Below, in pieces: positions 3,462-62,368 of a DNA stretch of 64,000 nt. Source of the DNA: Candidatus Woesearchaeota archaeon (GTDB lineage: Archaea > Nanobdellota > Nanobdellia > Woesearchaeales > DSVV01); the NCBI GenBank assembly GCA_018661705.1, contig JABJHR010000010.1:66911-130910 (forward strand), given 5' to 3'. Made by a program: the position numbers and the translations under genes. The notes beneath the pieces are model-generated. The model had not been told where the DNA came from, searched no databases, and saw nothing but the letters and a program-made list of their open reading frames with translations. The stretch's first letter is position 1. Each line of letters begins with the position of its first letter.

Positions 3462-3565
3462 TTGTACTAATTTATGCTTGTTAACACATAGGTTATATTT
3501 AAATGTTTTGTTTCTGTAACTACTCGTGAGTAGTTCTTATGTCTTTTGTATTTTGAATTGGGATT

Positions 3566-3616
3566 GAGAAGCTCTAGAACACTAGGTCCATAGGACATGT
3601 CACTCACGAATTTTTA
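3566..3616 (+). repeat. Repeat family A, 3'-half fragment (ACACTAGGTCCATAGGACATGTCACTCACGAATTTTT)
   Basis: Matches the 3' half of A1/A2; the hairpin stem is retained with a different loop (ATA). Confidence 0.55.
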
Positions 3617-3729
3617 AAATAAATAATATTCTTCTAGCGAGAACTAATTGTATTTAATTATAAGAAAAAATAAAAATTAATTTTTTTCCATGTTTTAAAA
3701 TTGAAAATTTTAAAGCCAGAAAAACAGTT

Positions 3730-7661: not shown

Positions 7662-8249
7662 ATGAAATACATTATTGAACATTTAGATGGACGTTTATAC
7701 AAATGGTGTTTTTTAGAATATAAACATATTTCTAAAATAGTCGGAAAAAGCAGCATTCTATTTACAAACGTGAATGGAGTGAAAGCACGTGAAAAACTAG
7801 GTCCGTCAGGACATGTTTATCATGAAAGTTTTACAGATTCTGAAAATATAACAAGAAAGAAAATATGCGTTTTAGATCCAAATGCTAAACAAATATTAAC
7901 AACTTCTGATAAAAATAAATTTGATTATCTTGTTTTTGGTGGGATTATGGGTGATTACCCTCCGAAAAAAAGAACAAAAGGCTTTTGTACTAAAATGCGA
8001 GAGAAAGGAATTAAATTTGAAACAAGAAATATGGGTAAAGAACAAATGTCAACAGATACTGCAGTTCTTGTTGCAAAAATGATAATGGATGGCAAAAAGT
8101 TTAATGAAATCAAATTCAAAGATACAATTATTATTGATATTAATGATTGTGAAGAAGTTGAGTTACCATTTAGATATGTTCTTAAAAATGAAAAACCAAT
8201 TCTTGCACCAGGTTTAGTTAAACATTTGAAAGAAAGAGGATATTTTTAA
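7662..8249 (+). CDS. conserved hypothetical protein (possible SPOUT/Tsr3-like RNA-modification fold)
   Basis: 195 aa; motifs VLDPNAKQIL and DYLVFGGIMGDYPP are weakly reminiscent of Tsr3/DUF367. Not secure. Confidence 0.35.
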   Translation: MKYIIEHLDGRLYKWCFLEYKHISKIVGKSSILFTNVNGVKAREKLGPSGHVYHESFTDSENITRKKICVLDPNAKQILTTSDKNKFDYLVFGGIMGDYPPKKRTKGFCTKMREKGIKFETRNMGKEQMSTDTAVLVAKMIMDGKKFNEIKFKDTIIIDINDCEEVELPFRYVLKNEKPILAPGLVKHLKERGYF

Positions 8250-22066: not shown

Positions 22067-22103
22067 TTCTGTTTTTTATTTTTTATCTGTTTAGAATTTT
22101 TTT

Positions 22104-22185
22104 AATAATGTAGGTTGACAGGGGGTTGTCCCTTACGGGGTGGTCGATAGGTTTGAACGAAGTGAAAATCGTCTACCATTATTAA
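22104..22185 (+). repeat. Repeat family C copy (C1)
   Basis: AATAATGTAGGTTGACAGGGGGTTGTCCCTTACGGGGTGGTCGATAGGTTTGAACGAAGTGAAAATCGTCTACCATTATT. Closing stem AATAATG/CATTATT and a GC-rich hairpin with GGGGG. Confidence 0.6.
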
Positions 22186-22222
22186 AATAAAAAAATTCAA
22201 ATTCTTAGAAAAACCATCACAA

Positions 22223-22831: not shown

Positions 22832-22953
22832 AATATATAATTAAAGGGTTCTATTAATAAATATTTGTATAAATACATATTAAATTATATTTAAACATAG
22901 GATTTAGTAACAATGTCACATACAAAAAACAACAATGGCGCACTTTAATAATC

Positions 22954-23060
22954 CAACAATAATGGCACAGACTGGCCGGGGGTTGGCTCCTTCGGAGTGG
23001 CCAGTAGGACTAATTCGAACATAGTGAGAATTTGGACGTCTGTTGCCATTATTATTGTTG
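22954..23060 (+). repeat. Repeat family C copy (C2), immediately upstream of tRNA-Met
   Basis: CAACAATAATGGCACAGACTGGCCGGGGGTTGGCTCCTTCGGAGTGGCCAGTAGGACTAATTCGAACATAGTGAGAATTTGGACGTCTGTTGCCATTATTATTGTTG. A 19-bp closing stem, a CTCC-UUCG-GGAG hairpin, GGGGG. Confidence 0.65.
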
Positions 23061-23135
23061 GATTCATTATCTACTTATTTTCAATCAAAAACAGTAAAAA
23101 CATTTATAAACAAATTACTTTTCTTAAGACATCAT

Positions 23136-23309
23136 GGCGGCATAACTCAGCCTGGAAGATGTTGATCATCTGGGCAATTAGAGTGCCACGCTCATATTGT
23201 TGAGCTAGGAGTTCCTTAATTGGGATGATGACTAAACAAGAGGCACGTGGATGTCCCGAGTTCAAATTTTGAAAAAGTTATTTTTCAATTGAAAGTCTCG
23301 GTGCCGCCA
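23136..23309 (+). tRNA. tRNA-Met/Ile2 (anticodon CAU) interrupted by three putative introns (D-arm 23 nt, canonical 37/38 48 nt, T-loop 29 nt)
   Basis: Hand-folded. Acceptor GGCGGCA/TGCCGCC, D-stem ACTC/GAGT with loop AGCCTGGAA, anticodon stem CCACG/CGTGG with loop CUCAUAA, variable ATGTC, T-arm CCGAG-TTCAAAT-[intron]-CTCGG, discriminator A, then oligo-T. Mature length 74. Confidence 0.5.
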
Positions 23310-48424: not shown

Positions 48425-48572
48425 CCTAGCGAAAAATAGCATTCGCAATTGTTAAAGAGTAATAATATTTAATATTTTAATACAAAAAATAACCATGGCC
48501 AGGCGAGGTGAAACCGAGTAGGATTTTTTGAGTGGAACGAAAAAAGTCCGTCTGTGCCTTTGTTGTTATTTT
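48425..48572 (+). repeat. A 5'-half (48425-48470) directly followed by a B copy (B4, 48486-48572)
   Basis: TAGCGAAAAATAGCATTCGCAATTGTTAAAGAGTAATAATATTT...AATAACCATGGCCAGGCGAGGTGAAACCGAGTAGGATTTTTTG-AGTGGAA-CGAAAAAAGTCCGTCTGTGCCTTTGTTGTTATTTT. Confidence 0.65.
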
Positions 48573-48600
48573 TTGTTCTTATACTTTCAAAGTTTTATTA

Positions 48601-49002
48601 ATGTCATTAAATAACTTTAAAATGGATTTACAAAAAAGAATTGAAACAATAAGAAAAAGAGTTGCAGAGAATAAAGCATTTAACCCTAATTGTTTTGGTG
48701 TTGCTTTGTACTTAGCTGGGTTTAGTGATAATTTGGCTTCAATTAGAAGAATAGGTGCTGAAGCTGTCTTAGGAGAAGAATTAACTCTTCCACAACCTGG
48801 TTGTTTTGTTACATTTAGATCCAGTAAAAGATATATGGAGTTACATCACCTAGGAATAATTCTTAATGGCAATCCCAAAGAAATGGCCCATTATCATTCA
48901 AATACAGGCTTAGTTTTAGACGAAAACATAAAGGCATTTCAAGAAAAACATTATAAGGGATATATGGTTAAATATTATCAAGCGAATCAACAAACATCAT
49001 AA
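48601..49002 (+). CDS. hypothetical protein
   Basis: Start moved to MSLNNFKMDLQ... because the track start at 48532 lies inside the B4 repeat. Confidence 0.4.
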   Translation: MSLNNFKMDLQKRIETIRKRVAENKAFNPNCFGVALYLAGFSDNLASIRRIGAEAVLGEELTLPQPGCFVTFRSSKRYMELHHLGIILNGNPKEMAHYHSNTGLVLDENIKAFQEKHYKGYMVKYYQANQQTS

Positions 49003-49038: not shown

Positions 49039-49734
49039 ATGCATATGAGAACTAAAATCATTGCAACTATTGGCCCTGCTTCTATGAAAAAAGTTAAACA
49101 AATGTGTAAAGCAGGAATGCATATTGCAAGGATTAATACGAAATATGGTAAAACCAAAGAGTATGAAAAGATTGTTTCTGATTTAAGAAAAACAAAATGT
49201 AAAATTATGTTTGATATTAAAGGTCCTATGCATATTGAATGGTTAAAGAAAAAAGATTTTGATTTTATTGCGGTTTCTTTTGCTCAAACAGCTAAACAAA
49301 TTAGAGAAATAAGAAAAGCATTTTCTCCAAGACGAATTAGAATTATCTCAAAGATTGAAAACAGAAAAGGTTTTCACAATTTAGCAGAGTTAATCAGAGA
49401 AAGTGATGGAATAATGGTGGCAAGAGGAGATTTAGGAAGACATGTTCCATTTGAAGAAGTTCCAATACTTCAAAAATTAATTATTAGAAGATGCAATAAA
49501 AAAAATACAATGGTAATCACTGCAACTGAGATGTTATTATCAATGGTTAAATCTAAAATTCCAGAAAGAGCAGAAGTAAGTGATGTTGCAAATGCAATAT
49601 TAGATGGCAGCAATGGAGTAATGCTATCAGAAGAGTCTGCTATTGGCAAACACCCTGTATTAGCTGTCCAAACAATGGCTAAAGTGATTACTTGCACTGA
49701 GAAGAATATGGGTAGATTGAGTGTTTGTGATTGA
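49039..49734 (+). CDS. pyruvate-kinase-like protein, truncated (231 aa; PK barrel motifs only)
   Basis: MRTKIIATIGPAS...AGMHIARINTKYG (PK N-terminus) and ITATEMLLSMVKSKIPERAEVSDVANAILDGSNGVMLSEESAIGKHP (PK active-site region). No B-domain insertion and no C-terminal domain. Confidence 0.5.
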   Translation: MHMRTKIIATIGPASMKKVKQMCKAGMHIARINTKYGKTKEYEKIVSDLRKTKCKIMFDIKGPMHIEWLKKKDFDFIAVSFAQTAKQIREIRKAFSPRRIRIISKIENRKGFHNLAELIRESDGIMVARGDLGRHVPFEEVPILQKLIIRRCNKKNTMVITATEMLLSMVKSKIPERAEVSDVANAILDGSNGVMLSEESAIGKHPVLAVQTMAKVITCTEKNMGRLSVCD

Positions 49735-49921
49735 TTACTTTAAGTGATGTATTAAGCTACAACAAATGTTGTATTATTTTTCATTAATTTTAACCATTTA
49801 GGCGGCTCCGACAAAATGGTCTGTAAACTCTTTTTCTGTTATATTTCATTTTATTGATACTACCAAAACGATAAAATACCATTAATTTTATAAATAGATT
49901 CTTGTTTTTAAATTCTAACGC

Positions 49922-50072
49922 GCCAGCGTGGCACAATCTGGTACTGCGCAAGCCTGGAAATGTGCTTTTGCGCAAAGGTTAGCTTGTTGGCTTCGGCCTA
50001 TCCCGGTTCAAATATCAAACTGTGTTTAATACACAAAAAAACGCAGTTTTTTTGAATGTCCGGGCGCTGGCG
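49922..50072 (+). tRNA. tRNA-Ser (anticodon GGA) with two putative introns (37/38, 21 nt; T-loop, 46 nt)
   Basis: Hand-folded. Acceptor GCCAGCG/CGCTGGC, U8, 3-bp D-stem GCA/TGC, anticodon stem CAAGC/GCTTG with loop CUGGAAA, long variable arm TTGGCTTCGGCCTAT, T-arm CCCGG-TTCAAAT-[intron]-CCGGG, discriminator G, oligo-T. Mature length 84. Confidence 0.5.
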
Positions 50073-50140
50073 TTTTTTTATCTATCTAAGCTATTTCTTT
50101 CCATCAATTTTAAATATAACAATCTTTATAATATAATTTT

Positions 50141-62236: not shown

Positions 62237-62260
62237 AATTAGAGATTAAGATCTAAAGCA

Positions 62261-62340
62261 AAAAATAATAACATTGGTGCTGGTGGGGGTGGGTTGGCTC
62301 CGTCGGAGTACCCGCCAGCTGCCGTTGTTGTTATTATTTT
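62261..62340 (+). repeat. Repeat family C copy (C3)
   Basis: AATAACATTGGTGCTGGTGGGGGTGGGTTGGCTCCGTCGGAGTACCCGCCAGCTGCCGTTGTTGTTATT. Closing stem AATAACA/TGTTATT, stem GCTGGTGGG/CCCGCCAGC, inner CUCC-GUCG-GGAG. Confidence 0.6.
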
Positions 62341-62368
62341 TTGCATCTACAAGAACACATAAAAAAAC

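Follow-up and report, generated by a model that had tools for sequence, protein, structure and literature searches.

A tRNA-Ser(GGA) gene with two predicted protein-spliced introns in a marine Woesearchaeota archaeon, and relatives in which identical exons carry different introns

In archaea, the T-loop position 59/60 is among the known non-canonical sites of tRNA introns (Yoshihisa, 2014; PMC4090602). Thermoproteales, in which intron transposition has also been described, are well known for genes holding as many as three introns (PMC4033280; PMC8450103), and the multi-intron tRNAs of Crenarchaeota were treated by Marck and Grosjean (2003) and Sugahara (2007, 2008), as reviewed in PMC4090602 and PMC4033280. 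DPANN archaea, too, are reported to have heavily disrupted tRNA genes (PMC5829648; PMC3239211); Nanoarchaeum, ARMAN/Micrarchaeum, Woesearchaeota and Pacearchaeota have multiple non-canonical introns, relaxed bulge-helix-bulge (BHB) motifs and incomplete automatic tRNA sets. EndA is present in DPANN and carries an L3 loop, which the authors associated with tRNA gene disruption, whereas crenarchaeal EndAs carry an L1 loop (PMC5829648). Kaneta et al. surveyed a Woesearchaeota genome, and the tRNA sets predicted for DPANN were incomplete and in need of manual curation (PMC5829648). For BHB introns, tRNAscan-SE 2.0 relies on models whose training was limited to Crenarchaeota/Euryarchaeota and Thaumarchaeota (PMC8450103). 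Both DPANN surveys give genome-level counts, and the portions of them considered here describe neither the tRNA-Ser(GGA) architecture reported below nor the presence or absence of its introns among genes with identical exons (PMC5829648; PMC3239211).

The locus described here lies on the forward strand of a 64-kb stretch of DNA, referred to throughout as the window. Positions 49922-50072 make up a 151-nt precursor encoding tRNA-Ser(GGA) in three colinear exons separated by two introns (Table 1). This is very probably a functional gene of Candidatus Woesearchaeota (DPANN) with two protein-spliced archaeal introns, its transcription, enzymes and actual splicing being predicted from sequence. The window's MutS is 100% identical to an NCBI protein named Candidatus Woesearchaeota archaeon and its nearest homologues are labelled Woesearchaeota or Nanoarchaeota; this naming, together with the titles of the orthologue records, points to an archaeal host. 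The precursor and its flanks are identical across five independent public assemblies, so the locus is not an assembly artefact; it is also present in the MAGs GCA_018673555.1 and GCA_018663845.1. A phage or mobile origin was dropped when a distant blastn search of a phage collection returned no match to the locus.

Table 1. Coordinates of the tRNA genes and neighboring features in the window.
Feature	Coordinates	Strand	Remarks
tRNA-Ser(GGA) exon 1	49922..49959	+	38 nt, tRNA nt 1-37
tRNA-Ser(GGA) intron 1	49960..49980	+	21 nt, canonical position 37/38, relaxed BHB
tRNA-Ser(GGA) exon 2	49981..50012	+	32 nt, nt 38-59
tRNA-Ser(GGA) intron 2	50013..50058	+	46 nt, position 59/60 (T-loop), strict BHB
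tRNA-Ser(GGA) exon 3	50059..50072	+	14 nt, nt 60-73
Archaeal TATA-box-like element TTTATAAA	49887..49894	+	-35 to -28 from mature 5′ end, read from sequence
T7 run, likely archaeal transcription terminator	50073..50079	+	read from sequence
Antisense 61-aa ORF, TTG start	49790..49975	-	overlaps promoter, exon 1 and intron 1; spurious
tRNA(CAT) gene, three introns	23136..23309	+	ARAGORN after splicing
tRNA(CAT) D-loop intron	23157-23176	+	20 nt; least certain exact junction
tRNA(CAT) 37/38 intron	23197-23244	+	48 nt
tRNA(CAT) 59/60 intron	23267-23295	+	29 nt
156-aa ORF	48532-49002	+	precedes pyruvate kinase
Pyruvate kinase gene	49039-49734	+	231 aa, upstream of tRNA-Ser(GGA)
Intergenic element	22095-22200	+	fold z-score -1.2
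Intergenic element	22930-23075	+	fold z-score -3.5
Intergenic element	62255-62350	+	fold z-score -5.9

Exon 1 holds the 5′ strand of the acceptor stem, the D-arm, the 5′ strand of the anticodon stem and C32 U33 G34 G35 A36 A37; exon 2 supplies the anticodon stem 3′ strand, the variable arm (GGC-TTCG-GCC), the T-stem 5′ strand and the T-loop TTCAAA; exon 3 consists of T60, the T-stem 3′ strand CCGGG, the acceptor 3′ strand CGCTGGC and the discriminator G73 at 50072, after which CCA is not encoded. The predicted splices join 49959 to 49981 and 50012 to 50059, the latter fusing ...CCCGGTTCAAA to TCCGGGCGCTGGCG, so that at the T-loop ...GGTTCAAA on the exon 2 side abuts TCCGGGCGCTGGCG on the exon 3 side. 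The mature tRNA has 84 nt and a GC content of 62%, in a window of 31% GC. Its acceptor stem GCCAGCG/CGCTGGC pairs in seven of seven positions, its D-stem has 3 bp (GCA/TGC), and its anticodon stem CAAGC/GCTTG closes a 7-nt loop, CTGGAAA, with U33. The variable region of 15 nt contains the GGC-TTCG-GCC hairpin, which covaries in orthologues, and the spliced T-arm reads CCCGG-TTCAAAT-CCGGG. Both G73 and the variable arm count among the serine identity elements, and the long variable arm with its own stem, the serine anticodon loop and G73 together make this a class II tRNA-Ser. The original prediction, made from the letters alone, had described this fold down to the 3-bp D-stem, the CU-GGA-AA loop, the 15-nt variable arm, the T-arm, G73 and the length of 84 nt, and it agrees with the sequence base for base, as do the intron lengths and positions that it gave (21 nt at 37/38 and 46 nt after the T-loop). 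Upstream, a box like TTTATAAA lies at about the same distance from the orthologous genes in five other loci (L011, L016, L033, L059 and L101; loci from the collections carry L-numbers), which make up the majority of the intron-bearing orthologues inspected, and the box also precedes the window's tRNA(CAT) gene at 23103-23110; we infer that the element upstream of tRNA-Ser(GGA) acts as its promoter. T-runs likewise follow the tRNA-Ser(GGA) orthologues, and the T7 run is likely to function as the transcription terminator.

Standard detectors miss the gene as it stands in the genome. ARAGORN reported no tRNA in the whole 64-kb window, either by default or with canonical introns allowed, and Rfam matched no family at the gathering threshold anywhere in it; lowering the ARAGORN score threshold yielded 100 calls, which were plainly noise. 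Once both introns were removed, ARAGORN called an 84-nt tRNA-Ser(gga), bearing out the predicted identity and anticodon, while removal of either intron singly gave no call. A generic pipeline, in which a T-loop-like site was located, BHB geometry was required at 59/60 and the spliced candidate was passed to ARAGORN, returned exactly two matches in the real window, the gene at 49922 and the one at 23136, and none in the reversed window or in 20 Markov resamples (509 BHB-like candidates). The tRNA-Ser(GGA) call is therefore far beyond chance. Scores from the Rfam tRNA model (RF00005, threshold 29 bits) were computed on unspliced genes only: the window gene, with introns at 37/38 and 59/60, reached 13 bits, whereas a locus with exons identical to the window's and a 37/38 intron alone (L138) scored 43.6 bits and an intron-free, 90% identical one (L089) scored 56.2 bits. 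In the window gene the alignment was lost after the anticodon arm and the 3′ half was wrong. No better alternative fold, which would have counted against the predicted one, emerged.

The T-loop intron lies in a strict BHB motif. The geometry searched for consisted of an outer helix, a 4-bp central helix between two 3-nt bulges, each cleaved after the second base, and an inner helix. At intron 2, T54-T55-C56-A57 pair with a TGAA lying two bases from the 3′ end of the intron, giving a central helix TTCA/TGAA with four of four pairs and bulges AAT and TGT; the outer helix is the 5-bp T-stem itself, and the inner helix of 1 bp is followed by an 11-bp helix inside the intron. This arrangement of two 3-nt bulges, a 4-bp helix and flanking helices (hBHBh′) is that of an EndA-type substrate and puts cleavage exactly at 59/60, and splicing at the predicted sites regenerates a canonical cloverleaf, as judged from ARAGORN, the products of relatives and covariation. 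The fold of the arm has a z-score of -4.4. The MFE structure of the T-arm favors a 6-bp TTCAAA/TTTGAA helix, the very pairing that had been proposed from the letters, which closes the 5′ bulge, and the strict BHB conformer lies 2.5 kcal/mol above it. The junction is ambiguous by one T between 59/60 and 60/61; the 60/61 register has none of the four central pairs, and 59/60 is the only register giving the same product that has BHB geometry. The original prediction had called this intron position unusual, a description that does not hold, 59/60 being already on the list of non-canonical archaeal positions (PMC4090602).

The anticodon-loop intron is different in quality, so that the expectation of a BHB motif at both introns holds strictly at the T-loop and only in relaxed form at 37/38. 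In its position, its 3-nt bulges (AAA and TTA), the use of the anticodon stem as outer helix (6 bp) and its 5-bp inner helix (TGTGC/GCGCA), intron 1 resembles the euryarchaeal 37/38 hBHBh′ intron. Unlike that strict motif, its central helix CTGG/AAGG has two of four pairs (C-G and U-G) and two G.A mismatches, where three of four is typical of 25 DPANN orthologues. The BHB conformer lies 1.9 kcal/mol above the MFE, and the arm folds no better than shuffled sequences (z = -0.32). Among the 25 DPANN genes, the 37/38 central helix has four of four pairs in 4, three of four in 18 and two of four in 3, the window included; at least three pairs are thus formed in 22 of 25, against about 15% expected from random bases. 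Because most of these orthologues stand at three pairs, far above chance, the relaxed 37/38 motif is, on this comparison, apparently a property of the lineage and not a defect of the window gene. It would be a poor substrate for an EndA of strict specificity and implies one of broad specificity. A strict-geometry alternative for intron 1 (25 nt, 49960-49984, CTGG/TTAG) was rejected, as it removes part of the 3′ strand of the anticodon stem and leaves no tRNA.

Orthologues were collected by scanning a species-dereplicated genome collection with an exon-anchored pattern, which gave 120 loci, about 40 of them DPANN-type tRNA-Ser(GGA) genes. Most of the latter have an uninterrupted T-arm, and in six species besides the window TTCAAA is followed by an insert of 21-75 nt, found with no BHB requirement imposed by a pattern that demanded contiguous GGTTCAAAT and to which inserts inside nt 54-59 or not starting with T were undetectable. 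The seven inserts are unrelated in sequence, and the central helix is complete in five and has three of four pairs in two; the outer helix is the 5-bp T-stem in all seven. A third intron is present in some orthologues, lying in the D-loop of L011 (48 nt) or in the anticodon stem of L059 and L101. The spliced window product aligns collinearly with 19 orthologues and is 93% identical to L025 and 90% to the intron-free L089. Pairing holds in 98.5% of the cells of the cloverleaf alignment and drops to 24-42% once partners are shifted by one to three columns. Compensatory changes occur in 13 of 23 cloverleaf pairs, and none of 500 shuffles reached the observed score; pairing of the acceptor and T-stems had served as a filter for part of the set, and the anticodon stem was fixed by the search pattern, whereas covariation in the D-stem and variable arm is free of this filter bias.

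Several further observations were made in these loci. A 20-nt intron in the anticodon-stem region occurs among the orthologues; counting also the D-loop intron of L011 and the anticodon-stem introns of L059, L101, L128/L131 and L132/L135, as many as three introns per gene interrupt exons that are nearly identical. A tRNA(CAU) gene lies directly upstream of tRNA-Ser(GGA) in L089 (5114-5240), L025 (3770-3895) and L138 (2576-2701), and the one in L025 has a 53-nt insert at the anticodon loop; as the tRNA(CAT) and tRNA-Ser(GGA) genes are adjacent in these relatives and about 26 kb apart in the window, a rearrangement is indicated. Second exact copies of a tRNA 3′ end were seen 60-120 nt downstream of intact DPANN tRNAs in L064 (about 7710-7860), L078, L087 and L103. 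They were considered as duplicated 3′ exons, a footprint of intron gain, and this was rejected at least for L064 (99-nt period) and L087 (61-nt period, three copies), where the repeat extends past the tRNA end and is a generic tandem repeat; integration-site remnants, replication slippage or an assembly effect are possible sources of the four sets of copies.

Further comparison comes from metagenomes, which were scanned with a 31-nt exon 2 core (exon 2 minus its first base) that is uninformative beyond nt 59. The core was found exactly in 14 contigs, representing nine gene structures. Six of these (L130, L134, L136, L138, L128/L131 and L132/L135), once spliced, match the window's product at 100% identity, and in all six the T-arm is uninterrupted and the 37/38 introns all differ. 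Exon 1 of the window is identical to that of L130, L134, L136 and L138; L128/L131 and L132/L135 carry an extra 29-nt intron after nt 29, in the anticodon stem. Base-for-base identical exons thus occur with three intron sets, namely 37/38 only, 29/30 with 37/38, and 37/38 with 59/60. The closest syntenic relative (L129/L133/L140), whose upstream pyruvate kinase gene is 85% identical in DNA, has a 14-nt intron at 37/38 and lacks the T-loop intron. At 59/60, L127 and L137/L139 do carry introns (46 and 31 nt), whose sequences are unrelated. The relatives with intact T-arms serve as natural intron-less alleles at 59/60, and they confirm the junction to within the one ambiguous T.

The T-loop site is used in other tRNA genes too. 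The gene at 23136, which the original prediction had given as a tRNA-Met of the same two-intron architecture, does share the 59/60 intron (TTCA/AAT/TGAA/AGT with a 5-bp outer helix), and it has three introns rather than two. Its triply spliced 77-nt product is tRNA-Met(cat) by ARAGORN, while the gene as encoded was missed by both ARAGORN and Rfam. The D-loop junction was set by the one register with full BHB geometry; a brute-force deletion scan was uninformative there, since ARAGORN tolerates many D-arm variants. Three consecutive G-C pairs in the anticodon stem are typical of initiator tRNAs. The stem here, CCACG/CGTGG, lacks them, and the tRNA could be an elongator Met or an Ile2. An unbiased scan of all fetched loci with strict vetting found further 59/60 introns in tRNA-Leu(TAA) (L080, L126), tRNA-Ser(CGA) (L099), tRNA(CAT) (L101), tRNA-Ser(GGA) (L124) and one Heimdallarchaeote tRNA (L036). 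The site is recurrent across isoacceptors, as makes sense when one strand of the central helix is already contained in the conserved T-loop. The Heimdallarchaeote example comes from an Asgard archaeon (Candidatus Heimdallarchaeota, CP070760.1, about 3520-3640) and is a 30-nt insert with a TTCA/TGAA BHB of four pairs. By eye, the 59/60 introns of the window's Ser and CAT genes had nothing in common beyond the TGAA motif, and no resemblance to orthologue introns was seen.

For tRNA-Ser(GGA), processing would proceed as for other archaeal tRNAs. Transcription would begin from the TATA box about 30 nt upstream and end at the T7 run, and the precursor would be trimmed by RNase P at its 5′ end and by a nuclease at its 3′ end. 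By analogy with characterized systems, EndA would then cut the two 3-nt bulges of each BHB motif; at the T-loop, pairing of T54-T55-C56-A57 with TGAA, together with the T-stem, would form the strict motif that sets the cuts at 59/60. An RtcB-type ligase would presumably join the exons, and CCA, not being encoded, would be added afterwards.

A dead tRNA pseudogene, inactivated by two insertions whose likeness to BHB motifs is incidental, would also explain why the 37/38 motif is weak and why standard detectors reject the locus, and with 64 kb of the genome visible a second, uninterrupted tRNA-Ser(GGA) copy could exist. We regard this as quite unlikely. The exons match those of six other gene structures at 100% identity, every stem is perfectly paired, and TATA box and T-run are both kept; the insert occupies a strict BHB whose junction is precisely the one that regenerates TTCAAAT, and seven species share site and geometry despite unrelated inserts.

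It is very unlikely that the gene is functional and loses its T-loop insert at another junction or by a route other than EndA, such as self-splicing or split or permuted processing. The 5′ bulge missing from the MFE structure and the ambiguous T leave some room for such a route; however, among registers with the same product BHB geometry exists at 59/60 only. Self-splicing group I and II introns are built on ribozyme cores hundreds of nucleotides long, far beyond what introns of 46 and 21 nt could hold, and Rfam finds none. A split or permuted gene would have separate or reordered exons, whereas the three exons of 49922-50072 follow one another in order on a single strand, all inside 151 nt. 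That the region instead encodes the antisense 61-aa protein, with the tRNA-like fold secondary, is extremely improbable: the ORF exists mechanically, but it has 61 codons from a TTG start, is not among the genes called in the public copies L001-L004 and overlaps strongly covarying RNA, and the orthologous tRNA genes sit in differing genomic contexts, in keeping with the ORF's earlier dismissal as spurious.

Other features of the window were noted in passing. The pyruvate kinase gene upstream of tRNA-Ser(GGA) matches only the latter half of the PK barrel domain and is preceded by a separate ORF, an arrangement called likewise in public copies; the gene may be split or degraded. Three intergenic elements have a long AT-rich closing stem and a GC-rich core sharing GGGGGTTGGCTCCTTCGGAGTGGCC. 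Those near 22-23 kb had no Rfam match even at a permissive threshold and the one near 62 kb had none at the gathering threshold; they may represent an undescribed small structured RNA or a miniature repeat family.

Returning to the reading of 49922-50072 as a gene with two protein-spliced introns, it resembles the genes of Thermoproteales and other Crenarchaeota in its colinear exons, in belonging to a set with up to three short introns, in a BHB (relaxed at 37/38) at each junction, in the use of the listed 59/60 position and in introns that turn over much faster than exons. Unlike the crenarchaeal hyperthermophiles, the host is a marine DPANN archaeon with 31% GC, and in contrast to the transposition described in Thermoproteales, no sequence similarity was seen between introns of different genes. 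It is also unlike other disrupted DPANN tRNAs in that no split or permuted genes were seen in this analysis. Archaea were already known to have introns at 59/60 and tRNAs with several introns, and the established picture of tRNA splicing is unchanged; mildly new, for marine Woesearchaeota, are the identical exons with different intron sets, the reusable 59/60 site and the failure of two standard detectors.

Identical exons with different introns in co-occurring relatives point to rapid intron turnover outside the well-studied Thermoproteales. A bolder proposal, which we put forward tentatively as a possibility, is that BHB introns in marine Woesearchaeota are gained and lost so fast that genes with identical exons differ in their introns, with 59/60 as a recurrent landing site; the near-universal TTCA gives one strand of the central helix, so that TGAA placed two bases short of the 3′ end would suffice to make an insert spliceable. 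The locus itself yields a simple search rule, consisting of a T-stem, TTCA, an insert ending in TGAA-NN, nt 60 and the T-stem 3′ strand. Both tRNA genes of the window are hidden from ARAGORN and from Rfam at its gathering threshold, a concrete and well-supported example of hidden DPANN tRNAs. If the proposal is true, many “missing” DPANN tRNAs would be annotation artefacts, and this population would offer a natural setting in which to follow the origin of archaeal tRNA introns.
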